From the NCBI GenBank assembly GCA_946412015.1, contig CAMKGA010000005.1:2265-66264 (forward strand): a stretch of 64,000 bases of DNA. The letters are read 5' to 3'. The stretch comes from an uncultured Bacillales bacterium. GTDB taxonomy: Bacteria > Bacillota_I > Bacilli_A > RF39 > UBA660. Below the pieces are notes generated by a model. The model was not told the origin of the DNA, did no database searches, and worked only from the letters and a program-made list of their open reading frames with translations. This document shows positions 1 through 14,737 of this stretch, piece after piece. Every line of letters begins with the position of its first letter. Position 1 is the first letter of the stretch. Made by a program: the position numbers and the translations under genes.

Positions 1-94
1 AAAGGAGTATATCTGTAGTAACAGCAATTGGATCAAATTTTCTAGGATCATAATTTTTTAAAAATTCTTCTTCCGATGAATATTCTTCTTTCAT
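1..94 (-). CDS. 5' fragment of a gene running off the window (MKEEYSSEEEFLKNYDPRKFDPIAVTTDILL...); Nudix/NrtR-type N-terminus suspected
   Basis: ATG at 92-94 is preceded by GGAGG and the frame is open to the window edge. The Y-D-P-x-K-F...AVT-T-D pattern resembles the start of Nudix-fold proteins. Only 31 codons are visible. Confidence 0.3.
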   Translation of the reverse strand, partial: MKEEYSSEEEFLKNYDPRKFDPIAVTTDILL

Positions 95-124: not shown

Positions 125-922
125 CTAATCAGATATCAATTTATTATGTATTCTAGTCGCAAATGAATAGTTATTTAATTTTAACATTTTAATCTTACTA
201 TCATCTAAGTAAGATTCTACACTCTTAACATTGTTATAATATTTATCAATTCCATCATAAGTAATAAAATAATGTCTTAAATCATCTCTTGGTATCACTT
301 TTACTATAGTATCTTTATTAAAGATAACTGGATTTCTGTAAGAATTATAGGCTTTAGTTGAAATTGCACCCATTGGTGTTACTTGTATTGTTGGAAATAT
401 AGGATCTATAGATGCACCACCATAACTTGCATTATGTCCTGTTGAGCCAATTGATGTTGATATAATAATGCCATCCCCTGTAAAATTCTCAAATAAATTA
501 TTATTACAATATATATCACTTTTTAGTACTTTACAGTTATTATATCTTATAATTACATCATTTAAAGAATGCAACACTTCTTTTTTATCATCATAGTTAA
601 TAATAGTTTTTTGAATATTTACTTTATTATCATAATAATCATTACTATTTAATCTATCTATAAAATTATCAACATCATTTACTTCCACTTCTGCTAAAAA
701 GCCTAAAGTTCCTGAATTAATACCTACATAATATGGACTAGAATCATAATTACAACTTCTTACCATTCTTAAGAATGCACCATCTCCTCCAATTGATACT
801 GCCATATCATAATTATTATTATCAATTATATATCCATTTTTTATAAATTTATCTTTAACTATTTTAGCATTTTTAATTGATTTATCATTATTATTAACAT
901 ATAATCTAATTCTTTTTATCAT
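125..922 (-). CDS. nadK: NAD kinase
   Basis: 265 aa. It has the GGDG signature (SIGGDGAFLRMVR) and TGDGIIISTSIGSTG, typical of ATP-NAD kinases. It is the last gene of the NAD operon. Confidence 0.9.
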   Translation of the reverse strand: MIKRIRLYVNNNDKSIKNAKIVKDKFIKNGYIIDNNNYDMAVSIGGDGAFLRMVRSCNYDSSPYYVGINSGTLGFLAEVEVNDVDNFIDRLNSNDYYDNKVNIQKTIINYDDKKEVLHSLNDVIIRYNNCKVLKSDIYCNNNLFENFTGDGIIISTSIGSTGHNASYGGASIDPIFPTIQVTPMGAISTKAYNSYRNPVIFNKDTIVKVIPRDDLRHYFITYDGIDKYYNNVKSVESYLDDSKIKMLKLNNYSFATRIHNKLISD

Positions 923-1459
923 CTAATCACCTACATTTCTATTGTATATTTTCTTTAATGTTTTAGGATTAATTGTTGCATCTATCCCATTTTCAGCAAG
1001 ATATGTATATGTATCTATTAAAACTTTATCTATCTTAGGGTTTATAAATTTACTTTTACCACTTTTTAAGTAGTATTCAAGTGGTTCTGAGACAGTCCAC
1101 TTATCTTTCTTATAAGTTTGTCCTGCAGCTATATTATCACATATCATCTCTACAGTATATTTATAAGGAATGAGTGCTCCTTTTTTATCAAGGAGATCAT
1201 ACCAATAATCAAAGTGATGTTTATTATGGCTTTTATGGTGTAACCATGCTTTAGAGTAACCTAATTCTTTTTTACAATTAATAATTGGGCTTTCATCACC
1301 TCGATAATACTTTGCACTTTCAAAAAATTCTACTGGCAAATATTTAGATAAATCATGTACTAGCCCTCTATAAGGAATACCTGCTTTAACACATAACTTA
1401 AATACCTTAAATCTATGTTTATTTACTAAATTAAAATGTAATACAATATTCCTAATCAT
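923..1459 (-). CDS. DUF5662-like histidine-rich protein, function unknown
   Basis: 178 aa. The HDLSKY...AWLHHKSHNKHHFDYW pattern is recalled from the DUF5662 family. It abuts nadK with no gap. Confidence 0.45.
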   Translation of the reverse strand: MIRNIVLHFNLVNKHRFKVFKLCVKAGIPYRGLVHDLSKYLPVEFFESAKYYRGDESPIINCKKELGYSKAWLHHKSHNKHHFDYWYDLLDKKGALIPYKYTVEMICDNIAAGQTYKKDKWTVSEPLEYYLKSGKSKFINPKIDKVLIDTYTYLAENGIDATINPKTLKKIYNRNVGD

Positions 1460-1462
1460 AAA

Positions 1463-1930
1463 CTATTTTATTACCTCAAGTAACTTATCAACTATTTTAT
1501 TAATAATTAATTCTTTGTTGAGAGCTCTACTAGGCTTAGTCGCTTCTGTTTTAAATTCTAAGTATTCATTATTATCTTTATCATAAATACACACAAACGT
1601 AATATTATCACTACCATAAGGATTATTCTTATCTACTCTATTTAATTTTCCTGTTATTCCAATGCCATAATTAGAATTAGCAAATCTAGCTATATTATAT
1701 GCCATTTCTCTAGCTACCTCACTACTATATACACTATATTTATCTATTGTTTTACTATTTACACCCATTTTAATTTTATATTCATTAGAATATGTTACTG
1801 CCGAAAATTTAAGTATTTCACTAGCACCTTCTATATTAGTAATTGCATTAGCTACTCCTCCACCAGTACATGATTCCATTGTAGAAATTGTTTTATTCAA
1901 TTTGGTTAACAAATTAATTACTTCTTGCAT
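1463..1930 (-). CDS. pncC: CinA-family nicotinamide-nucleotide (NMN) amidase, PncC-like stand-alone domain
   Basis: 155 aa. It has the ESCTGG motif (TMESCTGGGVANAIT) of the CinA C-terminal/PncC domain. Confidence 0.8.
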   Translation of the reverse strand: MQEVINLLTKLNKTISTMESCTGGGVANAITNIEGASEILKFSAVTYSNEYKIKMGVNSKTIDKYSVYSSEVAREMAYNIARFANSNYGIGITGKLNRVDKNNPYGSDNITFVCIYDKDNNEYLEFKTEATKPSRALNKELIINKIVDKLLEVIK

Positions 1931-2763
1931 AATATTTTCTCCTTTTTATAATAATTACTTAATATATCTTTCATATAATCAGGAATATACTTACTTACAT
2001 CTTCAATTATTTCGTTTGGTATCCCATAATATGCTTCTGCTAAAGCACCTGTAATACAAGCTATAGTATCTGTATCTCCTCCAATTGATAGTGCATTTCT
2101 AATAGCACTGTCAAATGAATATGATTTCAAAAAACAGAATATAGCTTGCGGTACTGAATCAATTGCCTTAGATGTAAAACGATAATTATGCCTTAAATCT
2201 TCTAAATCATAATCTAGATTAAAATAATTTTTTGTAATATAATCTATTAGTTCTACCTTAGATATACCATGTCTTAAAAAGAAAATCGAGGTTGCAACTG
2301 CAGAAGCACACTTAATACTATCTGGATTATTGTGTGTTGGAATTGTAGCAAGCATAGATTCTCTTTTTACATCCTCAAGTGAGTCAAATAAAAAACCAAC
2401 AGGAGATATTCTCATAGCACATCCATTACCAAAGCTATCTCCTTTAGAATTATTATTAAGCCAGCTTATAAAACCACTACCAAATCTACTTCTACCATAC
2501 TTATCAACACCTAAGTTTATTTCTCTTAATCCATACTCTTTAAGACAAGAACTATAATCTTTATTGTTAAGTATTGCATCCATAATAGAAATAGTAAGAA
2601 TAGAATCATCTGTAACTAAACACTCACTATTAAATAGTGGAGTATTATTATCAAGTATTTTAATTCTATCTATATAAGCTCTAATACCCTTTTTCTTTTT
2701 ATCAATAACCTCTAGCACTTCTAAATAAGAACCCGCAACATCACCTATAATTGCACCTAACAT
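1918..2763 (-). CDS. ADP-ribosylglycohydrolase family protein (DraG/ARH-like)
   Basis: 281 aa. The N-terminal GAIIGDVAGS and C-terminal GGDTDTIACITGALAEA metal-site motifs are typical of the family. It overlaps the CinA gene by 13 nt. Confidence 0.8.
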   Translation of the reverse strand: MLGAIIGDVAGSYLEVLEVIDKKKKGIRAYIDRIKILDNNTPLFNSECLVTDDSILTISIMDAILNNKDYSSCLKEYGLREINLGVDKYGRSRFGSGFISWLNNNSKGDSFGNGCAMRISPVGFLFDSLEDVKRESMLATIPTHNNPDSIKCASAVATSIFFLRHGISKVELIDYITKNYFNLDYDLEDLRHNYRFTSKAIDSVPQAIFCFLKSYSFDSAIRNALSIGGDTDTIACITGALAEAYYGIPNEIIEDVSKYIPDYMKDILSNYYKKEKILCKK

Positions 2764-2764
2764 A

Positions 2765-3319
2765 TTACACCTCGCATTTTTTTAATATATATTGATATGC
2801 CTCATCAAGAGTTTTATCTCTATCATAACTTGTATCAAAATATTTAATATTTAGTTTTTTACATTCTTCCTTAATATATATACTATAATTTATATTAGCA
2901 CTTATCATATTTAATAAATCAACATCATTTAATTTAGAACTCCAATAGTTTTTCTTATCATATTTTCTCATTATTTCTAAATATTCTTCACTAGTTATTT
3001 TACTATAACCTAAATATGCTATTAAAGCATTATTAGTATTTATATTTTTTATATCTTTAGGAAGTAAATGGCACGTATCAATTACATATTTTTCTTTTCC
3101 ATATACTGTATCAGTTTCATTTTCTTCAATCATTCTATTAATCATATTATACATTATATAACTCATATAATCCCAATTGTGACCATCTAAATTCATTATA
3201 TCACACATAGCTCTTTTTATCGTATCCATTTTATAATGATTAAAGCCAATTTGATTAAGTCTTATAGAAAGTGTTGTTTTACCAGAACGACATGTTCCAG
3301 CAATTATAACATGTTTTAT
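2765..3319 (-). CDS. P-loop NTPase / small-molecule kinase-like protein (2-phosphoglycerate-kinase-like layout); start extended beyond the ORF track
   Basis: The frame is open from 3328. The Walker A motif AGTCRSGKTT lies upstream of the first ATG (3229). GAGGT (3326-3330) is followed by 6 nt and then an ATA codon (3317-3319) overlapping the upstream TAA. No ATG, GTG or TTG is available. Confidence 0.6.
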   Translation of the reverse strand: MKHVIIAGTCRSGKTTLSIRLNQIGFNHYKMDTIKRAMCDIMNLDGHNWDYMSYIMYNMINRMIEENETDTVYGKEKYVIDTCHLLPKDIKNINTNNALIAYLGYSKITSEEYLEIMRKYDKKNYWSSKLNDVDLLNMISANINYSIYIKEECKKLNIKYFDTSYDRDKTLDEAYQYILKKCEV

Positions 3320-4350
3320 TTTTTTACCTCATATTTCATTAAGATATCTTCATTATCAACCCAGCTACCATTCAAGTTCCCATTAGGATGAAATACCATT
3401 TCATAAACTATATCATCATGTTTATTTTTTTCTTTTGTCTGTTGTTTTAAATCGGCTGACTCAGAACATACTACAACAGAATTATAATAATACATCTCCA
3501 CATAATAATAATATCCTAATAAATTTTTATATGGTTTAAATCTTGAATCTTTATCGATATCTTTCCATATGTCATTAAGTCTTACTTTATTTCTAACGTT
3601 ATAATCCATTTTTTCTAAATTACACATAGTATTTTCATCATAATCCATAAGTTCTCTAAATATTATATTATCAACACCCATTTTTTCATAGAATTCAATA
3701 TATTTAGAAATATCATCTACAGATTTAATACCATCTTTTAAAAGTAAACAACTAAGTCTTGGTCTTAATCCCTTTGATAAGGCATATGGAATAATCTTTT
3801 CAAGATTGGAATTACTACAATATCCTTTTTTATAACGCATTATTTTTTTATTAATTTCTTCATCATAATGTGTTTTACTAATATTTAAATGATCAAATTT
3901 TCTATCTATTAAATGATCTATTATTCTTTTACCATCAACATAATTTAAAAGTGCACTACCATTAGTTGTAATAGTTCTTTTTCTCATATTATGTTTATCA
4001 ATCAATTCAAGTATTTTTATAAATCTTTTTGATAGTGTAGGCTCACCACCAGTAATTGATACACTTACATTTAATGGTTCTATTTTTGTTAGTACCTCAT
4101 CAAGTCTTTTATAATATTCTAAATCATCTTCAATTTTAGGTTTTAAATAAGCCTTAGAAATGTTTTCATATCTTAACTGAGCAACACAAAATTTACAGTC
4201 TGCATTACAGTAATCATCAACAAAAATTGACAAATTACAATTACTATATACCTTTCTTTTTTTACCATCAAATTCAAAATCAATTAAATTTTTATCATTA
4301 ATATCAAAATCTTTTTGTCTTGTATATCTTATTTTTTCAAATTCACTCAT
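3316..4350 (-). CDS. radical SAM protein, MoaA/viperin-like architecture (paralog A)
   Basis: 344 aa. Motifs seen: CNADCKFC (CxxxCxxC), SITGGEPTL and TTNGSAL. No C-terminal auxiliary Cys cluster is present. An ATGA overlap joins it to the upstream gene. Confidence 0.8.
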   Translation of the reverse strand: MSEFEKIRYTRQKDFDINDKNLIDFEFDGKKRKVYSNCNLSIFVDDYCNADCKFCVAQLRYENISKAYLKPKIEDDLEYYKRLDEVLTKIEPLNVSVSITGGEPTLSKRFIKILELIDKHNMRKRTITTNGSALLNYVDGKRIIDHLIDRKFDHLNISKTHYDEEINKKIMRYKKGYCSNSNLEKIIPYALSKGLRPRLSCLLLKDGIKSVDDISKYIEFYEKMGVDNIIFRELMDYDENTMCNLEKMDYNVRNKVRLNDIWKDIDKDSRFKPYKNLLGYYYYVEMYYYNSVVVCSESADLKQQTKEKNKHDDIVYEMVFHPNGNLNGSWVDNEDILMKYEVKK

Positions 4351-5321
4351 TTTATCACTTCCTTAGCTTTTAAAATTGTTTTATTATTAAAACCACTATC
4401 TAAACTTCCATCTGGATAAAAGACAAACTCTTTAATTATATCAGAATTATTCTTTTTCTTTTCCTTATAACACTTTACAATTTTATTTTTATATTTATAC
4501 ACTTTAACTGTATAATACATTCCTTCTAATGTTCTTATATATTTAAAATCTTTATTGTTATTAATCTCTTCAAAAATCTTATTTATATCTATTTTTTGTT
4601 CTTTATACTTTTTACACATATTATTTAAATCAATAAGTTCTCTAAACATAACAGTATTAATATTCATATTATCATAGAAATTTACAAAATCTAATATATC
4701 ATTTAAATTCTTAACTCCACACTTTTGTAAAATGCAAGAAAGTCTCATATCCATATTATTGATATTACCAAATGTAAATATTCTATTTATATCTTGATTA
4801 CTCTGATTTATTCCCATTATCTTTTTATTTAAATTATCATCCACAACCATTCTACTAATATTTATATTATTAATAATATCATTATCTTTTAAATGTACTA
4901 TAATAGGTTTATTTTCATAGTAATCGAAAAGCCCTGTTCCATTAGTTGCAAATGTTCTACTTTTAAAACCAGATTCTCTTAATTTTCTTAAAATTGGTAC
5001 TAATTTTTCATCCTTTGTTGCTTCTCCTCCTGTAATAGTAAAGGGAATCTTTCTATCTTTAAATATATTAAGTACTTTATCTAAATGATAAAAATAATCA
5101 TTTTCACTAATATTTTTACAATCTAAAAATCTTTTTTGATAATTATTCATACAAAAGTAACAACTTCCATTACACTTTTTTGTAACATAAATAGAAATCT
5201 GAGCATTTGAATAATATTTATAAATTTTGTCATCAACTTTTAAATCTAAAATATCATAAACCTCAACATTATTAGTTTCTTTTTTTAAATCGTCTATATC
5301 TGAAAATTTTATTATATTCAT
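4347..5321 (-). CDS. radical SAM protein, MoaA/viperin-like architecture (paralog B)
   Basis: 324 aa. Motifs seen: CNGSCYFC, TITGGEAT and ATNGTGL. It shares RLSC(L/I)L, (I/M)FREL(M/I)D and F(H/Y)P(N/D)G(N/S)L blocks with the 344-aa neighbour. An ATGA overlap joins it to the upstream gene. Confidence 0.8.
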   Translation of the reverse strand: MNIIKFSDIDDLKKETNNVEVYDILDLKVDDKIYKYYSNAQISIYVTKKCNGSCYFCMNNYQKRFLDCKNISENDYFYHLDKVLNIFKDRKIPFTITGGEATKDEKLVPILRKLRESGFKSRTFATNGTGLFDYYENKPIIVHLKDNDIINNINISRMVVDDNLNKKIMGINQSNQDINRIFTFGNINNMDMRLSCILQKCGVKNLNDILDFVNFYDNMNINTVMFRELIDLNNMCKKYKEQKIDINKIFEEINNNKDFKYIRTLEGMYYTVKVYKYKNKIVKCYKEKKKNNSDIIKEFVFYPDGSLDSGFNNKTILKAKEVIK

Positions 5322-5983
5322 TTAAGTACCTTCTCATAATTACTACGTGCGATTAAATCTTTAAAAAAGCATTTACCATCACATGCATATATAAACCAAT
5401 TATCAATATTCTCAACTATTACAGGTTTATCATACTCAAGTTCATTTTCAAATTTACCATAACTTTGAAGATAAAATATATTAGATATATCAGTAAGATT
5501 CTGCTTTTCTATTTCTTCTTTTATAAAATTATCATCATGTCTTAATCTAACATTTAATAAAATATCAAATCCATCTATAAATTCAGTTGCTAGATAATAA
5601 TTACGTGCTTTATCAATGATTTCATTATCCATATTATAAAGCCAATAGTTTATACTTACTTTTATAACCATAGGAATTTTATAATATTTGTGAAATAATA
5701 CTAATCTTTCTAAATGTTTGTTAAGTAAAATACCATTAGTTAAAATAATTATTTTTTTACACCTATTAGTACTTCTCGCATATTCCATAAATAAATACAA
5801 ATTATTATGTAATAGAGGTTCTCCGCCTTCAAGTTGTAATTCAAAATCATCTTCTTTAGAATCTATAATTTTTTTAAATTCATCAAAAGTCATAAATCTA
5901 TGTTTATTTGAATCACTCCACATACAACAAAATTCACAATTAGCATTACAGTTATTAGTTATATTAATATATTGTCTTATCAT
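5318..5983 (-). CDS. small radical SAM protein (activase/QueE-sized)
   Basis: 221 aa. It has CNANCEFC at residues 12-19 and QLEGGEPLL. It lies 20 nt downstream of nadD and has its own GGAG. Confidence 0.75.
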   Translation of the reverse strand: MIRQYINITNNCNANCEFCCMWSDSNKHRFMTFDEFKKIIDSKEDDFELQLEGGEPLLHNNLYLFMEYARSTNRCKKIIILTNGILLNKHLERLVLFHKYYKIPMVIKVSINYWLYNMDNEIIDKARNYYLATEFIDGFDILLNVRLRHDDNFIKEEIEKQNLTDISNIFYLQSYGKFENELEYDKPVIVENIDNWFIYACDGKCFFKDLIARSNYEKVLK

Positions 5984-6003: not shown

Positions 6004-6534
6004 TTAATATAATTTATTATCATTGATATATTTTAATACTTTTCTATCTAAATATTTTGTTCTAATTTTTTTATTATTTCTTATTTCTGTTGATGATATT
6101 TGTATAGGATTAATTAAAGCAAATATCATATTATCATATTTAATATTAGTCTTTATATTATTCCTATCAACGACAATTACTCCATAGTTAAGTATTTTAT
6201 CATAATTTACCCATTTATGAAACTCTTTTAAATTATCCATTCCAATAATAAGTTTTATATCATCATTTTTATAATTTTTTTTATATAAATCCATTATTTG
6301 ATATGTATATTTTAATTCATTATTAGTTGTATCAACTATAGTATTACCACTACATACTAGTTTTAACATATTGATTCTATCATTTAATGGGGCAAGATTA
6401 TTTTTATTCCAGTATCCTAAAGTAGGTATAATGTAAATCTTATCAACATAATTGTTTTCAATTAACTTATTTGCAACATCAATATGTCCCTTATGCACAG
6501 GATTAAATGATCCTACATATATTCCTATTTTCAT
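6004..6534 (-). CDS. nadD: nicotinate-nucleotide adenylyltransferase
   Basis: 176 aa. It has GSFNPVHKGH (the HxGH nucleotidyltransferase motif) and ISSTEIR near the C-terminus. Confidence 0.85.
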   Translation of the reverse strand: MKIGIYVGSFNPVHKGHIDVANKLIENNYVDKIYIIPTLGYWNKNNLAPLNDRINMLKLVCSGNTIVDTTNNELKYTYQIMDLYKKNYKNDDIKLIIGMDNLKEFHKWVNYDKILNYGVIVVDRNNIKTNIKYDNMIFALINPIQISSTEIRNNKKIRTKYLDRKVLKYINDNKLY

Positions 6535-6535: not shown

Positions 6536-7291
6536 TTATTTTCTTTTATACATTGGTGTTTTAAATTTATGTTGATTAATTTTATGTAAGGCCATTATTT
6601 TTTCCTTTACATCATTATCTACATATTTTCCTTTAATAACATTCTCAATATCATCATATTTAACACCTAATTTTTCTTCGTCAGTTAATCCAGATAATCC
6701 ATCATCAGGAGCTTTATTTACAACCTGATTTGGAACACTAATATATTTACCAATTTCAATAACTTCTCTTACTGATAAATCACCAAGCACCATAATATCA
6801 GATACATTATCTCCACCTTTGGTAAAATATCCTACATATAACTCACATGCATTTGATGTGCCAGGAACAATATAAGTACCACCTTTTATATTTGATAACA
6901 TAGCTGCATTATAATATAAAGTTGCAGTTCTAAGTCTAGGTTTTATATTTATATTAGCATCAGTTAGATTTTCATCTTTAATATTAGGATAAATATTTTT
7001 TATATTATCTACATAATTATCATAAATATTAGTAAGATCTACCTCTTTTATATTAAAACCAAAATGTTTAGCAACTAAATATGCATTCTTTTTATCATTT
7101 TCTTTAGAATGACATGGCATCCATAAACCTTGAATATTTTCAGGACCAATAGCACGAGCAAATAGCCCTGCAACAACTGCTGAATCTTTACCACCAGAAA
7201 TACCAATAACTGCTCCTTTTAAATTATTCTCTTTATAATAATTTCTTATAAATTTTATAATCTCTTCTGTTGTTTTCTTTACATCAAACAT
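6536..7291 (-). CDS. nadE: NH3-dependent NAD+ synthetase
   Basis: 251 aa. It has the PP-loop ISGGKDSAV, and its length and layout match the single-domain NadE. Confidence 0.9.
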   Translation of the reverse strand: MFDVKKTTEEIIKFIRNYYKENNLKGAVIGISGGKDSAVVAGLFARAIGPENIQGLWMPCHSKENDKKNAYLVAKHFGFNIKEVDLTNIYDNYVDNIKNIYPNIKDENLTDANINIKPRLRTATLYYNAAMLSNIKGGTYIVPGTSNACELYVGYFTKGGDNVSDIMVLGDLSVREVIEIGKYISVPNQVVNKAPDDGLSGLTDEEKLGVKYDDIENVIKGKYVDNDVKEKIMALHKINQHKFKTPMYKRK

Positions 7292-7292
7292 A

Positions 7293-7892
7293 TTACCTCT
7301 CCTTTACATACTTTTTAATTTTTTCAAGTGCTAATTTTGTATTTACCCCCATAATATAATTCATATCATTTAAATAATTTAACTCATCATAATTAAATGT
7401 CATATATTTTATTATTTCATCTTTATCTAAATTTTGTTCATACTTTTTTTTACAATTTAAAGCTAAATAAATTCTATTTAATGCCATACTGCATCCTTCA
7501 TCTTGATAAAATGTATCTATTAATTTAATACTATCAGGAACATAGCCGGTCTCTTCGGCAAGTTCTCTTAAAGCTCCCGCTTTAGCATCTTCTAAAGATT
7601 CTATATATCCGGCTGGAAATCCAATACCAACAGAAAGATCAGTAAATACTCTAGGTTCAATAACAGTTAAAAACTCCCCATCAACTAAAGGTACAATAAT
7701 AGCAGCAGAGCCATCACAATTACCTTTAATTAATCTTTCTCTTGTGATAACTCTACCATTATTAAGAGTATATTTAAAAGATTCACTCTGTAAAAACTTA
7801 TTTTCTTGTGTAATAATATTTTTCTCTTTTTTTATTACCTTTAATTCTTCTATTATTTCTTTTAATTTTTCTATTTTTTCTTTTCTAATCAT
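7293..7892 (-). CDS. Nudix hydrolase, ADP-ribose pyrophosphatase-like
   Basis: 199 aa. It has the Nudix box GFPAGYIESLEDAKAGALRELAEETGY. It sits in an NAD/ADP-ribose context. Confidence 0.7.
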   Translation of the reverse strand: MIRKEKIEKLKEIIEELKVIKKEKNIITQENKFLQSESFKYTLNNGRVITRERLIKGNCDGSAAIIVPLVDGEFLTVIEPRVFTDLSVGIGFPAGYIESLEDAKAGALRELAEETGYVPDSIKLIDTFYQDEGCSMALNRIYLALNCKKKYEQNLDKDEIIKYMTFNYDELNYLNDMNYIMGVNTKLALEKIKKYVKER

Positions 7893-7893
7893 C

Positions 7894-9336
7894 TTATCTT
7901 ACCTTTTTTTTAACTTTAGTATTCCTTACTTCTTTAATCATTGCTTCTTTTAATTCTCTTAACTTATTTGTTAAATCTACATAATATTGATGTGGATTAT
8001 CTGCTCTTTTAATTTCTGGATAAATTGTTTTAAATTCATTAGCACAATATTCTTTTTTCTCTTCTATTGTTGGCTCTACATATACTTGATTACCATTTTT
8101 AAATATAACCTCAGTCATTAATCTAACATTATAATTTTCTAAATCTGTAGTTTTCCATGTTTCTGTTGGAGATACTAAAGTATATTTATCTTTAGGGATA
8201 ACTTCATCATTAAGAGTAATTACATCTCCTAATGCATAATTAGTTTTTTTATCATAAAATCTGTATAACTTTTTATATCCTGGATTTATAGTCTTAATTG
8301 TATCTTCACTAACTTTAATTCTAGGAATAATTTCATTATCCTTTTCTATAGCTACTAATTTATATACTCCACCAACACGTTCTTTAGATGCAGCAATATT
8401 ATCACCAGCACCAATTGAGTCAATAGGAGCACCTTCCTTAATTAAATTAATGATAGCTTTTTCAGTAAGTCCATTAGATACACAAATTTTAGCATCAGGA
8501 AATCCTGCTTCATCTAACATTTTACGAGCTTCTTTAGCCAAGTAAGATAAATCTCCACTATCTATTCTAATACCTTTAAATGGATAACCATTAGGAACCA
8601 AATAATCTTTAGCAACTTTAATAGCATTAGGAATACCACTTCTAAGTGTATCAAATGTATCTACTAAAAATACACACTCATAAGGATTACTCTTAGCATA
8701 ATCTAGAAATGCTTCATATTCACTTTCTGCATCACAGATCATACTATGTGCCATTGTTCCCATAACTGGAATATCATATTTCATACCTGCATATACGTTA
8801 GATGTTCCTGCACATCCACCAATATACGCATACTTAGATGCTTCAATTGCAGATTCTTTACCTCTAGCACGCCTAGCACCAAATTCCATAACTGGTATAT
8901 TTGCGGCACTAGTAATTCTTTTAGCAGCAGTAGTAACTAATGTTCCATGATTAAACTCAGATAGAAGTGCTGTTTCTAATAATTGAGCTTCAATAACATT
9001 AGCCCTAACAGTTATAACTGGCTCATTTGGAAATATTACAGTTCCATCTTTTACTGCATATAAATCTCCAGTAAACTTTAAGTTCCTTAAATACTCTAAA
9101 AACTCTTTACTAAATTTATTTGTACTTTTTAAAAATTCAATATCTTTATCAGTGATTTTAAAATTATTAATAAATTTTATAATATTATCAAGTCCACCAC
9201 TTATTGCATATCCTCCATCAAATGGATTCTTTCTATAAAATATATCAAAATATACTTTTTTATTTACCTCACCCTTATCAAAATAAGTTTGAGCCATTGT
9301 AAATTCATAAAAATCTGTCATCATCGTATAATTCAT
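7894..9336 (-). CDS. pncB: nicotinate phosphoribosyltransferase
   Basis: 480 aa. It has the N-terminal MTDFYEFTMAQTYF and GTMAHSMI motifs of the NAPRTase family. Confidence 0.9.
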   Translation of the reverse strand: MNYTMMTDFYEFTMAQTYFDKGEVNKKVYFDIFYRKNPFDGGYAISGGLDNIIKFINNFKITDKDIEFLKSTNKFSKEFLEYLRNLKFTGDLYAVKDGTVIFPNEPVITVRANVIEAQLLETALLSEFNHGTLVTTAAKRITSAANIPVMEFGARRARGKESAIEASKYAYIGGCAGTSNVYAGMKYDIPVMGTMAHSMICDAESEYEAFLDYAKSNPYECVFLVDTFDTLRSGIPNAIKVAKDYLVPNGYPFKGIRIDSGDLSYLAKEARKMLDEAGFPDAKICVSNGLTEKAIINLIKEGAPIDSIGAGDNIAASKERVGGVYKLVAIEKDNEIIPRIKVSEDTIKTINPGYKKLYRFYDKKTNYALGDVITLNDEVIPKDKYTLVSPTETWKTTDLENYNVRLMTEVIFKNGNQVYVEPTIEEKKEYCANEFKTIYPEIKRADNPHQYYVDLTNKLRELKEAMIKEVRNTKVKKKVR

Positions 9337-9371: not shown

Positions 9372-9965
9372 CTATTTCCTTTTTACAAGCTGTATACCTT
9401 GTTGTTCCATAAGCAAATATGCAGCATCAATATAGTTTTCTCTTGCATCCTCACCATATGTTGCAATAGCATCTTTATATGCTTTAATAGTTACATCTCT
9501 ATTCCACTGATCATTATAATTTGCAAGCCCGATTGCACCATTTACAACACATATATCAGTACAGCATCCACAAATTCCATACTCTTCTACATTATCAAGA
9601 TTTTTAACCACTTTTCTAAAATCAGGAGCTTCCATAAAGCTTGTAGAATTTTTTTCAATTGAAATTGTATTAACTAATCCTTCATATGGTATTAATTCAT
9701 CTACTAAATCAGCTTCTTTTGTTCCCTTTATACAGTGGTGAGTATTACCAAATCTTTTAAACTCTTTAGAATCTTTATTATGTGTATCTTTAATAAAGAT
9801 TACAAGTCCATCGCAAGCTAATGTTTCTTTGATTAATTTTATTTGTGTAGGAATAATGTTTGCAATAGAATTATCATGTAAAACACCTTCACGAACAAAT
9901 CCATTAACCATATCTACTACTATTAAACATTTTTTATACATTTTAAAATTATTTATTTTTTTCAT
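9372..9965 (-). CDS. pncA: nicotinamidase (isochorismatase fold)
   Basis: 197 aa. It has LIVVDMVNGF and CGCCTDICV (the catalytic Cys region). It is the first gene behind the promoter at ~10.05 kb. Confidence 0.8.
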   Translation of the reverse strand: MKKINNFKMYKKCLIVVDMVNGFVREGVLHDNSIANIIPTQIKLIKETLACDGLVIFIKDTHNKDSKEFKRFGNTHHCIKGTKEADLVDELIPYEGLVNTISIEKNSTSFMEAPDFRKVVKNLDNVEEYGICGCCTDICVVNGAIGLANYNDQWNRDVTIKAYKDAIATYGEDARENYIDAAYLLMEQQGIQLVKRK

Positions 9966-10048
9966 ATTATCTCCTCCATCGTTTGTTTTTAACTTTTTAT
10001 TAATATCACATTTGTAAAATTTAAACAGTTTTTTCAGCTGTTACTAAC

Positions 10049-10077
10049 ATTATATTAATAACTAAACAATTTGTCAA
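10049..10077 (-). promoter_or_regulatory. sigma-A type promoter of the NAD operon (TTGACA-17-TATAAT), followed by inverted repeat AACAG-N9-CTGTT
   Basis: The reverse complement of 10072-10077 is TTGACA and that of 10049-10054 is TATAAT, with a 17-nt spacer. The inverted repeat lies at 10023-10042, near the predicted +1. Confidence 0.55.
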
Positions 10078-10094: not shown

Positions 10095-10655
10095 TTAATA
10101 TTTTTTTAATTCAAAGTCTTCAATATTAGTTTTTCTATTAATAATATCATACATATTATTAGCATCATCAATCAAATCTATTCCACTTATTCCCATTTCA
10201 CTAGGTTGTGATATTACAATATCATTTTCCTTTAAATCTATTATTTTTCTTACTAAGCTATCATCACCTGGCCTGCCATAACCATATCGCCAAGAACTTT
10301 TTATATCTTTAGTTTCTTCTCTTAATCTAAATGATAATCTTCTTAAAAATGAAGGATGGCACATTGGAAAATATAGTTTTTTAACATTTGATCTTTCTTG
10401 AATGTTTTTTAAATTCCATACAAAATAAATCAACTGCTCATCACAATAAGCTATTTCAAACAAGTTTAAATTAACATTAAAGCCTAAACTTTCTAATACT
10501 TCTATTAAACTTAAAGTTATAACTCCTCTATTAAATATTTGATTATTATCAGTATAGCAGGCACAAGCTATATTAAAATAAATATCTATTTGTTTTCTCA
10601 TTTCTTTTTCTTTATTTAACATGGATAATGGGTTACCTTCTAAATATGCCTTCAC
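10095..10655 (-). CDS. C-terminal part of a vWA-like protein (CobT/ViaA-like partner of the AAA+ ATPase); lacks its own RBS
   Basis: 186 aa from a GTG. The frame stays open upstream to the TAA at 10728-10730 and is continuous with the 79-aa ORF. IDIYFNIACAC resembles a degenerate vWA beta1/MIDAS position. Confidence 0.4.
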   Translation of the reverse strand: MKAYLEGNPLSMLNKEKEMRKQIDIYFNIACACYTDNNQIFNRGVITLSLIEVLESLGFNVNLNLFEIAYCDEQLIYFVWNLKNIQERSNVKKLYFPMCHPSFLRRLSFRLREETKDIKSSWRYGYGRPGDDSLVRKIIDLKENDIVISQPSEMGISGIDLIDDANNMYDIINRKTNIEDFELKKY

Positions 10656-10727
10656 ATCCGGTGCATAACCAACATAATAATTATACTGTTTATTTTTTTT
10701 AACACTTAACTTTATATATTTTTCTAA

Positions 10728-10967
10728 TTATAATTTTAATTCTAAAAATCTATCAAAGTTTTCATTATATCCATATTTTATTAATTCTTTTGCCTCATCT
10801 AAGCTATTTGTTTTATACCAATCATAATCTGTAGCCTCACTCAATAAATCATAATTTTTAAATCCATTAGCAATTGGAGTATTATCTAGATAATTTAAAT
10901 ATTCTGTTATTGAATCAAAATATTGATACATTACATTATATTCATCTTTTTTATAATACTTATACAT
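10728..10967 (-). CDS. N-terminal part of the same vWA-like protein (79 aa)
   Basis: It has a good RBS (AGAAGG, then 7 nt, then ATG). It ends at a TAA that is in frame with the 10095-10655 ORF. Confidence 0.4.
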   Translation of the reverse strand: MYKYYKKDEYNVMYQYFDSITEYLNYLDNTPIANGFKNYDLLSEATDYDWYKTNSLDEAKELIKYGYNENFDRFLELKL

Positions 10968-10971
10968 AGTA

Positions 10972-11676
10972 CTACCTTCTTAGTGATAATCTCTTTACTG
11001 CATAATAATACTTATTATCATAATTAATATTATTCATAGATCCAATCAATGTATTTAAATCATCTTGTTGTAAATTTTTAATAACGTTTGATGTTAATAT
11101 ATCATTAACAGGAATATTATTAATTTCTTTTTTATATACTTTACCTATTCCCCTTGTTGATACAATATGTGGCATTTTAGTATCATATACTGCATTCCTA
11201 AATGACCACATAAATTTTAATACTTCTTCATTTGGATATAATGCTCTTTCCAAGTTTTTATCATAATCAAAGAAAATGTTATCAAATCTATCTAGGGTTG
11301 CTCCATCTAGAGCATTTCTACCAACGTATTGTAAATCAGCTCCCTTACCCCAAGTATTAGCAGCAGAAATAATTCTAAAGTCTTTATGTCTTTCTATTGT
11401 TTCATGTGGAAATGCCATATACCCATTAGCAAGTGCTGAATTTATAACAATCAATGCTGAAGGGTCTGAATTATCGATTTCATCTAAGAAAAATATTCCT
11501 CCATTTTTAAATGCTTTATAAAATTCTGTATCTCTATAATTTCCACCAGCATCAATAAAACCAGTAAGTTTAAATTCATTAGATGCATTATTAGTATAAT
11601 ACATATGAAGTCCTAAAGCATCTGCAACTTGTTTTATAGCGACATTCTTGCCACTTCCTGCTGGTCCTATAAGCAT
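10972..11676 (-). CDS. AAA+ ATPase, MoxR/CobS/AAA_5-like (as drawn it starts inside beta1 of the P-loop domain)
   Basis: It has Walker A LIGPAGSGKN, Walker B IFFLDEID and an arginine-finger region GATLDRF. No SD is present. The frame is continuous with the upstream 335-aa ORF across one TAG. Confidence 0.7.
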   Translation of the reverse strand: MLIGPAGSGKNVAIKQVADALGLHMYYTNNASNEFKLTGFIDAGGNYRDTEFYKAFKNGGIFFLDEIDNSDPSALIVINSALANGYMAFPHETIERHKDFRIISAANTWGKGADLQYVGRNALDGATLDRFDNIFFDYDKNLERALYPNEEVLKFMWSFRNAVYDTKMPHIVSTRGIGKVYKKEINNIPVNDILTSNVIKNLQQDDLNTLIGSMNNINYDNKYYYAVKRLSLRR

Positions 11677-11709
11677 TATCGGTTCATCTAATTGAACTTG
11701 CCTTAAAAT

Positions 11710-12717
11710 CTACTCAAACCTTTCATGAAAGAACCCTCCACCAGTTTCTCCCTTTTTTACATCATTTAAAGTAATTACATTATTTATTGGAACAATGTTT
11801 TTTTTCTTATACTCTTCTACAGCATCATCCAATATATTAGTAATCTTTTCATTAACCTGTTGTTCTATATTTAGCTCTTCCATCTTATTCTTTACCAATT
11901 TTAAAACTTCAATTTTAGTATCATTATCAAGCTGATTAACAATATAATCTTCTAATTTTTTCTTAGAATCATCAGATTTAAGATAATCATTAATTTTATC
12001 ATCTATTTGTTTTCTAACCTCTTCACCAGTAATTTGAAAAAGCATTGTATTAATTCCTTTTAATAGATAATCTGCATTTTCTCTTGTTTCTTTAACAAAC
12101 TGATTTCTCATATTATCACCTCTATTTCTTTCATTACCATAAAGATCATAAATAGTATTATCAATCATATATGAATTTGATTCTAATTCATATACTTTAT
12201 CACACAAATTACTTAATATCTCTTCACTATTAGAATACATAATATTAGAATCATTATCATATCCATAATATAAATGAGAATAAGTATTATTACCATCAGT
12301 TACACCTGCAACTAATTTTTTATTATATTTATCCCAAATAACTGAGCAAAAATCCATTTTCTGGCGGAGTGCTGAAAAAACACTTTCATTATAATACTTA
12401 TACATTTTATTAATAATACTATGTTTTCTATCAAAATCTGATTCTCCATAATCACTATAAAAATCATTTGCCTTTTCAATTTCTTTTTGATCAAATCCAC
12501 TAACGGCAACAATATTAGAATCATAATTTTTATATGGATCTCTATCTTCTATATATTCACTATATACAATTTTTGCCATGAAAACATTAGTATCATTATA
12601 CGTTTTTACTGTATATCTATCAGGACATAACATATCTAATTGATACTTAACTTTAATGTTGTTATATTGCTTACTTTTACATACAACAAAATATTTACCA
12701 CTTCTATATTCATCCAT
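11710..12717 (-). CDS. hypothetical protein; probable N-terminal region of the AAA+ ATPase
   Basis: 335 aa with a good RBS (AAGGTG). It ends ...GGGFFHERFE at the TAG (11710-11712), which is in frame with ILRQVQLDEPIMLIGPAGSGKN. Confidence 0.5.
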   Translation of the reverse strand: MDEYRSGKYFVVCKSKQYNNIKVKYQLDMLCPDRYTVKTYNDTNVFMAKIVYSEYIEDRDPYKNYDSNIVAVSGFDQKEIEKANDFYSDYGESDFDRKHSIINKMYKYYNESVFSALRQKMDFCSVIWDKYNKKLVAGVTDGNNTYSHLYYGYDNDSNIMYSNSEEILSNLCDKVYELESNSYMIDNTIYDLYGNERNRGDNMRNQFVKETRENADYLLKGINTMLFQITGEEVRKQIDDKINDYLKSDDSKKKLEDYIVNQLDNDTKIEVLKLVKNKMEELNIEQQVNEKITNILDDAVEEYKKKNIVPINNVITLNDVKKGETGGGFFHERFE

Positions 12718-12799
12718 GTTATCACCTTCTTTTGTTTGTTATTGTCATTTTGTTAATAACTAAATATAAAATTTTAACAGTTTGTCTCCTGTTAATAAC

Positions 12800-12828
12800 A
12801 TTATATTAATAACAAAACGATTTGTCAA
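12800..12828 (-). promoter_or_regulatory. sigma-A type promoter of the AAA+ cassette; near-copy of the NAD operon promoter module
   Basis: TTGACA (reverse complement of 12823-12828), 17 nt, then TATAAT (reverse complement of 12800-12805). An AACAG-N8-CTGTT inverted repeat follows. The 12768-12837 module is about 85% identical to 10017-10087. Confidence 0.55.
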
Positions 12829-12857
12829 TACTTTTTTAAAAAAAAATAAAAGATTTT

Positions 12858-13313
12858 TTATCTTTTAATTTTTTCTTTATTTGAATATATACTATATGGT
12901 CTTAAATTACCCGTTTTTATCATATCATCACGTATTTCTTCTGCTTCTTCCATATCATTAGCTCCAAAATACGCCATAACTAGTTCTCTTCTTATTTGTT
13001 TTAATTCTGCTTTTCTTTGAACTGAAAGTTCTTCTTTTTTTTCTAAGACAAAATTCTTACATTTAGAAACAATAAAACTATCAAGACAATTATTATTATC
13101 AACAATCTGATAACCATTAATAATAAAATCATAGTCATTAATATTCAATTTTGTAATATCATAAATTTTTTTACATTTAGAAGGGATACCATTTAGACAA
13201 TCCCAACATAAATGTTTATTACTTTGAATTATATTATATCTTTCTTTTGTATAATCAATTTGTTTTGTTATACCATTTGTTTTTTGATATATCGTTGTTA
13301 ATTTTTTACTCAT
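12858..13313 (-). CDS. hypothetical protein (151 aa from MSKKLTT)
   Basis: The ATG at 13313 follows GGGGGG. The upstream 21 codons in the track lack an RBS. I recognise no motif beyond scattered Cys pairs. Confidence 0.5.
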   Translation of the reverse strand: MSKKLTTIYQKTNGITKQIDYTKERYNIIQSNKHLCWDCLNGIPSKCKKIYDITKLNINDYDFIINGYQIVDNNNCLDSFIVSKCKNFVLEKKEELSVQRKAELKQIRRELVMAYFGANDMEEAEEIRDDMIKTGNLRPYSIYSNKEKIKR

Positions 13314-13377
13314 AACATAGTCCCCCCTTTTCATGAAATTAGAAAGTATGTTAGCACATTTAACCATTAAAGTCAAA

Positions 13378-14130
13378 TTAAACTAATCTTGGAGTTAATA
13401 TTTCATAACCGTCTTTTGTAACTAAAACGGTATGTTCATAATGGGCAGCTGGACTTTTATCCATTGTTTTAACAGTCCACTCATCGTCCATTAAATATAC
13501 TTTCGAACTTCCAAAATTAAGCATTGGTTCTATACAAATAACCATTCCTTCTTTAAGTCTAGGTCCAGTATTAAAAGTTCCATAATTAGGTACATCTGGA
13601 GCTTCATGCATTTCAGTACCAATTCCATGTCCACATAATTCTTTAACTACTCCTAAATTATGTTCTTTTGCATATTTATATACAGAGGCTGAAATATCCC
13701 CTATTCTATTACCTGGTTTTACCATTTTAATTCCTTCATATAAAGCTTTTTCTGTATGTTCCATCAAATACTTTTTATCATCAGATATATCTCCAACTGC
13801 ATATGTCCAAGCAGCATCCCCTTGGTATCCTTTATAACCAATAACCATATCAATTGTAATAATATCACCATTTTTTAATTTATAATTACCTGGAATTCCA
13901 TGAACTACTGTATCATTAACGCTTGTACAAAGTGCTGCAGGAAAACCCTCATAACCTTTACAAGTAGGTACTCCATTCATACTTCTAATATAATCTTCTG
14001 CAATCTTATCAAGTTCTTTAGTAGTAATTCCTTCTTTAATAAATGGTTTTAAATACTTATGAGTTTTAGAAACCATCATTCCTGCTTCTCTCATAAGATT
14101 TATTTCTCTTTCACTTTTTATTGATATCAT
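13378..14130 (-). CDS. map: type I methionine aminopeptidase
   Basis: 250 aa. It shows the pita-bread fold pattern, with metal-ligand motifs DMVIGYKGYQGD, GHGIG and ICIEPM. Confidence 0.9.
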   Translation of the reverse strand: MISIKSEREINLMREAGMMVSKTHKYLKPFIKEGITTKELDKIAEDYIRSMNGVPTCKGYEGFPAALCTSVNDTVVHGIPGNYKLKNGDIITIDMVIGYKGYQGDAAWTYAVGDISDDKKYLMEHTEKALYEGIKMVKPGNRIGDISASVYKYAKEHNLGVVKELCGHGIGTEMHEAPDVPNYGTFNTGPRLKEGMVICIEPMLNFGSSKVYLMDDEWTVKTMDKSPAAHYEHTVLVTKDGYEILTPRLV

Positions 14131-14218
14131 ATATTCACCTCACAAAAAAAACTTTAAGTAAAGTTTTTCTTCAACAATAATAGCACAATTATCTATTTTT
14201 TTCAATTACTACATTACT

Positions 14219-14494: not shown

Positions 14495-14521
14495 ATAATC
14501 ACTCTCACTTTCTTAAATAAC

Positions 14522-14546
14522 AAAAAAACTAACTATTTCTAGTTAG
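14522..14546 (-). terminator. Rho-independent terminator inside DR-L
   Basis: On the minus strand, a CTAACTA-GAAA-TAGTTAG hairpin is followed by T7. Confidence 0.55.
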
Positions 14547-14737
14547 CATTTATTACTCTCGAAATGTAAAAGTTCGAGTTTCCTATCATATTGGAGCGGT
14601 TGGTTAAGTTATTTCAAACTTTTCCTCATTAATGAGAAATTAATGTTTTAATATCAATTTCTAATAATATTTTAACTTTTTCTTGTTTTTTATTCAATAT
14701 CATAATGTTCGGGATAATTATTATAAATTTTGTGTTA

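Follow-up and report, generated by a model that had tools for sequence, protein, structure and literature searches.

A pair of radical-SAM proteins recurs next to genes of NAD and ADP-ribose metabolism in bacteria and phages, suggesting a hitherto undescribed step in NAD management

To our knowledge, no route of nicotinamide adenine dinucleotide (NAD) synthesis, salvage, or repair uses a radical S-adenosylmethionine (radical-SAM, rSAM) enzyme. This raises the question of what three such genes, rSAM1, rSAM2, and rSAM3, and a P-loop kinase gene are doing between nadD and an ADP-ribosylglycohydrolase (ARH) gene, inside a 13-gene minus-strand NAD-salvage operon, in a 64,000-nucleotide (nt) stretch of DNA from an uncultured Bacillales bacterium of the gut (GenBank assembly GCA_946412015.1, contig CAMKGA010000005.1, positions 2,265 to 66,264 of the forward strand; here called the window). 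The block resembles a nucleotide-type radical-SAM enzyme accompanied by a kinase, and the family itself is undescribed in the literature that we found. Below we present evidence that its core, rSAM1 plus rSAM3, is found repeatedly near genes for NAD and ADP-ribose metabolism in unrelated bacteria and in phages, a pattern pointing to a step of NAD management, in cells and viruses alike, that has yet to be described.

The radical-SAM block and its operon

Positions are given in window coordinates, and genes on the minus strand, which carries almost all genes of the NAD region (G+C content, 25%), are numbered in the direction of transcription. The operon comprises the following features.

10077..10049, minus strand: operon promoter, TTGACA, 17 nt, and TATAAT (12/12 sigma-70 matches)
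9965..9372, minus strand: pncA-like nicotinamidase of the isochorismatase family, an open reading frame (ORF) whose homologues are annotated PF00857
9336..7894, minus strand: pncB, nicotinate phosphoribosyltransferase (Pfam NAPRTase on the 99%-identical contig L079)
7892..7293, minus strand: Nudix hydrolase (PF00293 on L079)
7291..6536, minus strand: nadE, NAD synthetase (PF02540 on L079)
6534..6004, minus strand: nadD-like nucleotidyltransferase (CTP_transf_like)
5983..5318, minus strand: rSAM1, a small radical-SAM protein of 221 amino acids (aa) with CNANCEFC and EGGEP; core partner of rSAM3
5321..4347, minus strand: rSAM2, 324 aa, with CNGSCYFC and GGEA; an rSAM3 paralogue and Firmicute-type accessory
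4350..3316, minus strand: rSAM3, 344 aa, with CNADCKFC and GGEPT; a MoaA/viperin-fold protein and the best-conserved component
3319..2765, minus strand: P-loop kinase with a nucleoside monophosphate (NMP) kinase-like fold, 184 aa, ATA start
2763..1918, minus strand: ARH (PF03747, 112.9 bits)
1930..1463, minus strand: CinA/PncC-type domain (nicotinamide mononucleotide deamidase family)
1459..923, minus strand: DUF5662 protein
922..125, minus strand: NAD kinase (NADK)
94..1, minus strand, running off the window: 5' end of an NrtR-type regulator gene (Nudix plus NrtR winged helix), identified from L079

An initial annotation, made from the letters of the window alone, had described three translationally coupled ORFs with CxxxCxxC and GGE(P/A) motifs, and both motifs and coordinates were confirmed. 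The ATGA overlaps joining rSAM1 to rSAM2 (5321-5318) and rSAM2 to rSAM3 (4350-4347) are read directly in the sequence, as are the 20-nt spacer between nadD and rSAM1, which includes AAGGAG, and the single nucleotide between the kinase stop and the ARH start. The promoter at 10077..10049 is the sole perfect sigma-70 promoter upstream of the cluster on the minus strand, and no minus-strand terminator was found from this pncA promoter down to position 1; therefore, as had been proposed, rSAM1-3 and the kinase are co-transcribed with pncA-pncB-Nudix-nadE-nadD and ARH-CinA-DUF5662-NADK. On L079, a metagenome contig 99.2% identical to the window, a gene directly after NADK (8257-9035) matches PF00293/PF21906. 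Were it not for the inserted block, this would be a NrtR/Preiss-Handler operon of the classical type.

rSAM1 and rSAM3 form the conserved unit

We assembled 71 genome loci, 77 IMG/VR loci, and contigs encoding chosen homologues as 20-kb loci (labelled L below; single proteins are labelled P), dereplicated them at 85% identity into 56 lineages, and counted neighbours within 10 kb of rSAM3. In this set rSAM1 accompanies rSAM3 in 49 lineages, rSAM2 does so in 18, and the kinase in 6. The initial annotation had taken all four genes as one module, and this did not hold: the conserved functional unit is rSAM1 plus rSAM3, an obligate pair that is adjacent almost everywhere. rSAM2, a Firmicute paralogue of rSAM3, and the kinase, which is confined to Bacilli-type loci, are lineage-specific accessories. 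With these two genes added, the block in the window is the Firmicute version of a two-component radical-SAM system that is rare and has spread horizontally. The rSAM3 family numbers 529 relatives at 90% clustering and ~125 clusters at 50% identity among 1.84 billion representatives, and its lineages span uncultured Bacilli, Clostridia, Bacteroidales, Myxococcota, Proteobacteria, Cyanobacteriota, DPANN and Asgard archaea, and phages.

Natural fusions suggest that the two proteins act together: P0310 and P0332 are single polypeptides in which rSAM1 is followed by rSAM3, the two halves of P0310 matching them with E = 1e-36 and 1e-77, respectively. Further, rSAM2 can be a noncatalytic subunit, since in L016/L017 it has lost both the CX3CX2C motif and the GGE motif. 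In Muribaculaceae prophages, rSAM3 stands on its own. In a clade of ~150-kb phage contigs, the pair adjoins a 2,162-aa virion protein, and in Dulem virus 40 it adjoins an acetyltransferase; a search of plasmids gave one distant match only.

The rSAM3 domain was also observed in other architectures. These include a fusion protein of 1,836 aa (P0297), a type with an additional ~330-aa N-terminal domain (P0293/L028, 11007-12983) that recurs beside the pair in Lachnospiraceae and Ruminococcus, and proteins with a C-terminal domain bearing a GS...DxD motif (P0393/P0400), which from a reading of the motif we take to resemble a minimal nucleotidyltransferase. Neither the 330-aa N-terminal domain of the 650-aa fusions nor the C-terminal domain of P0393 gave a significant match when searched against PDB sequences. 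Insertions break up the block in some sister genomes, namely L010 (see below) and L009 (7212-9999), in which a 426-aa ORF of opposite orientation divides rSAM2.

The pair recurs beside NAD and ADP-ribose genes

An NAD-synthesis or NrtR gene lies within 10 kb of rSAM3 in 13 of the 56 lineages, an ADP-ribose-processing gene in 13, and a gene of either kind in 19; the background for NAD genes in a 20-kb stretch is put at a few percent, an estimate of our own rather than a matched random-locus control. The linkage recurs in at least six gene orders; examples are as follows.

L012/L014: rSAM1-2-3-kinase-pncB-pncA-nadE-nadD-NrtR
L008/L011/L021: Prs-nadD-rSAM1-2-3-kinase-(rSAM)-CinA-NADK
L036/L061, Erysipelotrichaceae-type metagenome-assembled genomes (MAGs): rSAM1-2-3-pncA-pncB-Nudix-nadE-nadD-NADK-NrtR
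L034, Lachnospiraceae MAG: NADAR-NrtR-rSAM1-2-3
L031: NADAR-rSAM1-2-3
L041, Johnsonella: NrtR-PncA-rSAM1-rSAM3
L046, Ruminococcus: pair facing PncB-PncA-(HemN-like rSAM-Nudix)-NrtR
L057, Polyangia MAG: PncB upstream of the pair
L141, IMG/VR contig: NAPRT-rSAM1-rSAM3-rSAM-NadE-...-NadD-NrtR-like-Rnl1
L170, putative phage: Nudix-rSAM-x-NMNAT-like-CoaE-like kinase-rSAM1-rSAM3-NADAR
L164, putative phage: NAPRTase...RNA ligase-HAD-rSAM1-rSAM3-x-x-Tad2-like-Cas3/Cas7/Cas6...NADAR

L164, L170, and L173 (see below) are termed putative phages by gene content, and no DNA match to GenBank phages confirmed L164 or L170 as such. The pair recurs beside genes for NAD synthesis and ADP-ribose processing both in phages and across several bacterial phyla, and the linkage that was first noticed in the window is conserved and has been reinvented in several gene orders. 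Descent alone hardly explains it, given the varied gene orders, the two-gene versions in Clostridia, and the myxobacterial and phage cases. Other neighbours counted within the same distance were PaaK/F390-synthetase-like ligases (11 lineages), Methyltransf_24 proteins (7 lineages), and RNA-repair genes (Rnl, PNK3P, Tpt1, or CCA-type; 6 lineages).

Several of these loci have further features of their own. In L046 (12867-14777, minus strand), a HemN/HemW-like radical-SAM protein fused to a Nudix domain lies between PncA and NrtR, and L016 (13455-14789) encodes a 444-aa relative of it; these may represent a second, unrelated radical-SAM link to NAD loci. Additional radical-SAM genes occur near the pair in L168 (15645-16547) and L141 (3695-4591 and 9027-10055, one of them directly after rSAM3), and from their GCxxGCxFC and MGMGEP-like motifs we take them to be RlmN/Cfr-like. 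L164, a contig of 134 kb, has a compact Cas3-Cas7fv-Cas6 set resembling a type I-F variant (12089-17083) directly after the Tad2-like gene and near NADAR and NAPRTase. In another phage clade, L155 (6716-16432) encodes a distant 317-aa relative (27% identity) that adjoins a reverse transcriptase and lies ~5 kb from a PncA-Prs-like-NAMPT/NAPRTase-NadE cluster. DUF5662, present in the operon of the window (923-1459), is also encoded ~2 kb from the pair on L173 (6704-7264), a 102-kb putative phage contig that additionally carries PNK3P and a nucleoside deoxyribosyltransferase-like gene.

The radical-SAM proteins fall outside characterized families

All three rSAM proteins belong to the radical-SAM superfamily. 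Each has a CX3CX2C motif and exceeds the gathering score of Pfam Radical_SAM (PF04055, 29.5 bits), with 45.6 bits for rSAM1, 31.3 for rSAM2, and 49.5 for rSAM3. None of them reached a more specific Pfam family, and none of the four block proteins reached the cut-off of any curated family. The best NCBIfam matches were MoaA and viperin, at ~50 bits against cut-offs of 180 to 325, with most alignments covering only the N-terminal cluster-binding half. Thus, with the MoaA equivalogs TIGR02666 (cut-off 284) and TIGR02668 (cut-off 325), rSAM3 scored 51.4 bits and rSAM1 and rSAM2 scored 47 bits; with viperin NF038283 (cut-off 180), rSAM3 scored 49.6 bits over residues 43-188 only; the PADLOC models of prokaryotic viperins (pVips) gave ~50 bits, again N-terminal only; and the NrdG2 activase model gave rSAM1 25 bits (cut-off 131). 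The PHROGs and PADLOC matches are equally generic. The N-terminal likeness extends to MoaA, NrdG, QueE, and SPASM maturases, and the profile of rSAM1 best matched the N-terminal half of MoaA.

rSAM2 and rSAM3 are paralogues, as had been noticed, 34% identical along 326 residues (E = 4e-48). Across 32 aligned rSAM3 homologues the mean column identity is 70% and 11 Arg/Lys residues are invariant; since the invariant Cys are limited to C48, C52, C55, and C201, rSAM3 has no auxiliary or SPASM cluster. The same holds for rSAM2, which has the three Cys of the radical-SAM cluster plus C196 and no conserved extra Cys. The AlphaFold model of rSAM3 (confidence score pLDDT, 90.5) has MoaA as its nearest PDB fold (E = 1e-14; template-modelling [TM] score, 0.62-0.64), followed by SuiB and the viperins, the latter with TM scores of 0.41-0.51. 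A profile search of PDB sequences likewise placed MoaA first (37 bits), and the BFVD fold search recovered only unnamed phage radical-SAM proteins. rSAM3, for which a MoaA/viperin-type layout was originally proposed, is nearest in fold to MoaA, with viperin ranking further down, and lacks features that define each of these families.

MoaA is a nucleotide-acting radical-SAM enzyme that abstracts a ribose hydrogen and binds GTP through a C-terminal auxiliary [4Fe-4S] cluster held by three Cys. rSAM3 resembles this GTP 3',8-cyclase, its best match in both structure and sequence, in its N-terminal CX3CX2C cluster, its GGE motif, and its similar size. However, it lacks the Cys of the auxiliary cluster, has Ser at the position aligned to MoaA residue 17 (the GTP-binding Arg17, replaced by Ala in the triple mutant that was aligned), reaches 51 bits where the equivalog cut-offs are 231-325, and is accompanied by a second radical-SAM partner; no MoaC or other molybdenum-cofactor gene was found among the operon genes or the annotated related loci. 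With the viperins, rSAM3 shares a single-cluster radical-SAM architecture, a high-ranking fold match, a sporadic cross-domain distribution, and an adjacent gene of nucleotide kinase fold, pVips often being paired with nucleotide kinases. It differs from them in falling below the cut-off with its N-terminal half only, in its obligate second radical-SAM protein, and in its setting, which is in NAD-salvage operons and, on phage and putative phage contigs, among counter-defence genes rather than in defence islands. As for SPASM/twitch maturases, there is no Cys-rich C-terminal domain, and neighbourhood clustering recovered no conserved small-ORF partner; no annotated locus has a glycyl-radical enzyme gene. 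The identities of MoaA, viperin, QueE, NrdG-type activase, and SPASM maturase were therefore rejected, as cut-offs or defining features failed in each case.

The coupled kinase has a polymorphic start codon

The Walker A motif of the kinase, AGTCRSGKTT, lies upstream of the first ATG (3229), from which the ORF would encode only 154 aa without the P-loop. The frame is open from just past the rSAM3 coding region, and the true frame (3319..2765) begins at an ATA that overlaps the rSAM3 stop as ATAA, so that the overlap first reported is literally right. Among eight 99%-identical metagenome contigs from independent samples, two have an ATG start with a TGA stop of rSAM3 (AAAAAATGAAAC), and six, like the window, have the ATA start with a TAA stop (AAAAAATAAAAC); the homologues of the kinase all start with ATG, three to ~ten codons before the P-loop, and usually overlap the end of rSAM3. 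The difference is a start-codon polymorphism, the majority ATA allele being a weak, noncanonical start, and not a frameshift. A frameshifted or recoded kinase (-1 slippage on A_AAA_AAA at the end of rSAM3) and a homopolymer sequencing error were both rejected because the sister contigs differ only in ATG versus ATA.

The modelled structure (pLDDT, 95.9) matches UMP/CMP, dTMP, adenylate, shikimate, gluconate, and dephospho-CoA kinases with TM scores of 0.45-0.61; by this fold and the Walker A motif GTCRSGKTT, the 184-aa protein is a predicted NMP kinase-like P-loop kinase. It reached the threshold of no specific kinase family (NRK/NadR AAA_28, CoaE, CMP kinase, etc.), scoring 20.6 bits with AAA_18 (cut-off 29.4) and a best E-value of 1.3e-4 with AAA_28 among 12 members, and had no match in NCBIfam. 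The family is represented by 42 clusters in 5.8 billion proteins.

A shared palindrome suggests NrtR control

By a de novo palindrome search, we recovered a 25-bp palindrome, TGTTATTA-N9-TAATAACA, common to the promoters of these operons, where it overlaps the -10 box and often has a second copy ~50 nt downstream. Over ~1 Mb of loci, sites with no more than one mismatch number 10, where shuffles give 0.13, and those with no more than two number 29, where shuffles give 4.0. In the window, the copies (9984..10063) lie ahead of the pncA-first operon, at 10039 and 9984 with two mismatches each, one of them overlapping the -10 box. Elsewhere the palindrome stands ahead of rSAM1-first operons (perfect in L036/L061, one mismatch in L010, two in L016), of the NADAR-NrtR-rSAM1 operon (L034), and of a small gene, c10, upstream of Prs-nadD-rSAM1 (perfect in L008/L010/L011, one mismatch in L021). 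Because all these loci encode NrtR, we take the palindrome to be probably an NrtR operator, as a candidate defined by sequence, and the block is probably co-regulated with NAD salvage. The NrtR gene lies directly after NADK in the locus of the window and is also present in L012/14, L034, L036/61, L041, L046, and L141.

NrtR proteins sense ADP-ribose, which on binding causes release from DNA, and in most NrtR groups the operator is a 21-bp palindrome with a GT-N7-AC core (PMC2330246). The operon conforms to such a regulon in the presence of pncA, pncB, nadD, nadE, and Nudix/NrtR genes, in the regulator at its end, and in the palindrome on its promoter, but it differs in having radical-SAM genes and a palindrome of 25 bp without that core; a strict search for the 21-bp form with the GT-N7-AC core found essentially nothing. 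We found no described NrtR regulon with radical-SAM genes and no paper containing both terms.

Two loci show other occurrences of the palindrome. L010 has two copies of a 531-534-aa ORF (2576-4171 and 6665-8269), one of which is inserted between nadD and rSAM1, and the rSAM1 so cut off has its own copy of the palindrome. In the window, a neighbouring minus-strand operon (12717..10095) encodes a 335-aa protein, an AAA_5 (CobS-like, phrog_249) ATPase, a 79-aa protein, and a DUF7192/phrog_1909 protein. Ahead of it lie a second perfect TTGACA-17-TATAAT promoter (12828..12800) and two copies of the same palindrome (12790 and 12737), and for this reason it probably belongs to the same regulon as the NAD operon. 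We rejected it as a conserved partner of the pair, as it is found beside the pair nowhere else among the loci.

A proposed nucleotide-directed system in the maintenance of the NAD pool

What the pair does in such operons is best approached through its likely substrate. The fold similar to MoaA and viperin, the many invariant basic residues, and the recurrent nucleotide-handling neighbours suggest that the substrate is of the nucleotide class. These neighbours include kinases (the 184-aa family, CoaE-like, and NADK), phosphatases (PNK3P, HAD, and metallophosphoesterase), nucleotidyltransferases, and Nudix hydrolases, and the position equivalent to that of the kinase is taken in phages by CoaE-like kinases, PNK3P, or HAD phosphatases. 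The earlier proposal of a nucleotide-modifying module with a kinase supplying or trapping the substrate is partly supported. Neither of the computational checks put forward with it, the family searches and the survey of linkage to NAD genes, refuted it; the putative substrate class and the role of the kinase are read from fold resemblance and gene context, and the proposed composition of the unit is given up.

Our preferred reading, to which we give a little less than an even chance, is that this radical-SAM system is directed at nucleotides, that its substrate is NAD-related, and that it serves the maintenance of the NAD pool. In such a system, rSAM3 would bind a nucleotide (NAD, nicotinate adenine dinucleotide, ADP-ribose, or an adenine nucleotide) and, in the manner of MoaA and viperin, remove a hydrogen from its ribose by means of the 5'-deoxyadenosyl radical. 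rSAM1, in complex with it, would carry out or complete a second radical step, with rSAM2 as an extra subunit that could be catalytically dead, and the kinase would phosphorylate the substrate or product, priming or trapping an intermediate. ADP-ribose, as a signal of NAD cleavage, would induce the operon by the logic of NrtR, and the output of the system would rebuild or protect the NAD pool. Such a role would account for the presence of the pair in phages, where it lies among genes for NAD reconstitution and anti-Thoeris genes. Along these lines, the pair is best read as belonging also to NAD-centred phage-host conflict; this suggestion, made at the outset as a possibility, has gained contextual support from its occurrence near Tad2-like, NADAR, NAPRTase, and NMNAT genes on phage and putative phage contigs.

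Several described systems are comparable, and our literature searches, which paired radical SAM with NAD salvage, NrtR, NAD reconstitution, ADP-ribose, or RNA repair, recovered no description of the present family. The phage NAD+ reconstitution pathways NARP1-3 rebuild NAD against NAD-depleting immunity by means of an ADP-ribose pyrophosphate (ADPR-PP) synthetase (Adps) plus Namat, NadV plus NMNAT, or PnuC plus NadR, with no radical-SAM enzyme (PMC13464706). The likeness is that the rSAM pair, on contigs that are viral or putatively so, has NAPRTase, NMNAT-like, NadE, and kinase genes as neighbours; none of the NARP signature enzyme pairs occurs in the operon of the window, which is of the Preiss-Handler type (pncA, pncB, nadD, nadE). 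The ARG-centred, Nudix/NrtR-regulated systems, predicted to counter viral ADP-ribosylation (Iyer, Burroughs and Aravind 2022; PMC9503650, section 3.8), similarly place an ADP-ribosylglycohydrolase under an ADP-ribose-sensing Nudix-HTH regulator, with NADAR as an option; a further likeness is that in the window a neighbouring AAA+ operon shares the candidate operator. They are described with phosphatases, chaperones, and nucleases, without radical-SAM genes or a full NAD-salvage set. Ophion, an anti-jumbo-phage system of Gammaproteobacteria made up of a radical-SAM protein, a PHP protein, and a phosphoribosyltransferase (bioRxiv 10.1101/2025.09.30.679545), also brings a radical-SAM enzyme and a phosphoribosyltransferase into phage-host conflict, but by its description it is set apart by another architecture and other taxa, with no second radical-SAM protein and no NAD-salvage genes.

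A number of points weigh against a role in NAD-pool maintenance. In 37 of the 56 lineages, there is no NAD or ADP-ribose gene within 10 kb, and a distant subfamily (33-47% identity) is linked instead to PaaK-like ligases and Methyltransf_24 proteins. Many of the NAD-linked Firmicute loci may share ancestry and so not all be independent events, and as large phages cluster NAD, RNA-repair, and anti-defence genes anyway, adjacency there is weaker evidence. The case for a nucleotide substrate draws on a fold match with a TM score of only about 0.6 and on gene context. The palindrome is without the GT-N7-AC core typical of NrtR sites (PMC2330246), the identity of the regulator being read from the genes present, and the ATA start in most sister strains suggests that the kinase is dispensable or weakly made.

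A more specific form of the NAD reading goes further, and we regard it as possible but rather doubtful. It holds that the pair catalyses a hitherto unknown, oxygen-independent radical reaction that forms a genuine step of NAD metabolism, which would either make or regenerate a pyridine-nucleotide precursor (nicotinate, nicotinate mononucleotide [NaMN], or an ADP-ribose-derived intermediate) or turn NAD into an analogue that resists or inhibits NADases. In gut Firmicutes the step would be under ADP-ribose/NrtR control, and in phages it would serve as a fourth NAD-rescue counter-defence.

Alternative explanations

Of the alternatives, two survive about equally well, both of them unlikely in our view. 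The first is an oxygen-independent route to nicotinate or NaMN, in which rSAM3 and rSAM1 would build or free nicotinate from a non-niacin precursor for entry through PncB/NAPRTase into the Preiss-Handler pathway, with a PaaK-like ligase activating a similar aromatic acid in the distant subfamily. NAPRTase/PncB is indeed the commonest NAD neighbour (9 of the 13 NAD-linked lineages), lying immediately ahead of rSAM1 in L141 and a short distance away in L057 and L164. The PaaK/F390-synthetase-like adenylating enzymes, which act on carboxylates, adjoin rSAM1 in their 11 lineages and are fused to it in L051/L054, and the block is retained in very small genomes (e.g., the 748-kb contig of L005/L014). 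Nonetheless, we know of no chemical precedent, and the rarity of the family would be odd if its two enzymes supplied an essential vitamin. The MoaA/viperin fold and the many invariant basic residues suit a phosphorylated nucleotide better than a small aromatic acid, and phages with only the pair and PNK3P are hard to account for.

The second is a viperin-like system making a modified, toxic, or chain-terminating nucleotide (e.g., 3'-deoxy or didehydro), with the kinase making its substrate or priming a leaving group. It would be used by bacteria and prophages against phages, and by phages against hosts or rivals, its co-regulation with NAD genes reflecting a common ADP-ribose alarm. The viperin folds among the top matches, the weak pVip matches, the translational coupling to a partner of nucleotide kinase fold, as in pVip-kinase pairs, and the sporadic spread across domains, prophages and phages included, would all fit such a system, as would a Ham1-type nucleoside triphosphate pyrophosphatase gene that follows the kinase in L016/L017. 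As rdgB-hemW is a common housekeeping pair, Ham1 there is perhaps merely the usual neighbour and is treated cautiously. The remaining evidence runs the other way: the viperin-model score falls far short over the N-terminal half only, MoaA is closer in fold, the second radical-SAM protein is without counterpart in viperins, the block lies in an apparent housekeeping NAD operon of small genomes, and the putative phage contigs place it among counter-defence genes (Tad2-like, NADAR, NAPRTase) and not among defence genes.

Somewhat less probable still is an RNA- or tRNA-end-modifying or repair system, whose link to NAD would be indirect, by way of NAD-dependent RNA repair (Tpt1) and nucleic-acid ADP-ribosylation. 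This would accommodate the six lineages with RNA-repair genes, among them Rnl1, Tpt1, and a CCA-adding-type enzyme in L087/L168 and an RNA ligase in L164, and also PNK3P, which directly follows rSAM3 in the ~150-kb phage clade and is present in L173, and the presumed RlmN/Cfr-like genes of L168 and L141. It would likewise accommodate NADAR, which flanks the pair in L031, L034, and L170 and which is reported to reverse nucleic-acid ADP-ribosylation. It leaves unexplained, however, why in bacteria the block is inserted under an NAD-type operator, with nadD and ARH or NAPRT and NadE on either side; the proteins showed no RNA-binding domain, and large phages commonly have RNA-repair genes regardless. 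Finally, radical-SAM enzymes of an ordinary housekeeping kind (MoaA for the molybdenum cofactor, QueE, an activase of glycyl-radical enzymes, or a peptide maturase) that lie in the operon by chance, for which only the generic N-terminal likeness to MoaA, NrdG, QueE, and SPASM maturases speaks, are very improbable and refuted as far as tests on sequence reach, given that every equivalog cut-off is missed widely, that the auxiliary or SPASM cluster is lacking, that a molybdenum-cofactor gene such as MoaC, a glycyl-radical enzyme, and a precursor peptide are absent among the annotated genes of the window and related loci, and that the linkage is conserved across phyla.

Genomic setting of the window

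Elsewhere in the window lie genes for DnaK, ClpB, RNase Y, DnaE, an IS110 transposase, and a serine recombinase. The window has no match among GenBank phages, and operons related to its NAD operon occur on contigs of 0.5-0.75 Mb from uncultured Bacilli and from a MAG labelled Dojkabacteria. A phage origin of the window was rejected on the grounds of these DnaK, ClpB, RNase Y, and DnaE genes, the lack of a GenBank phage match, and the large bacterial MAG contigs bearing the operon. The IS110-family transposase and the large serine recombinase (16546-17829 and 20323-22191) lie a few kilobases from the NAD region and may mark a mobile or rearranged segment.

Implications

If the link of the pair to NAD is functional, it would extend one of the best-charted cofactor pathways by a new enzymatic step and bring a new player into the arms race over NAD depletion between bacteria and phages, in which NARP1-3, Tad1/2, and NADAR have all been found only recently. 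Since the family is small, with a two-gene minimal unit, natural fusions, and obvious candidate substrates, the question is directly testable. Were a role in NAD metabolism confirmed, the reaction would be categorically new for it.

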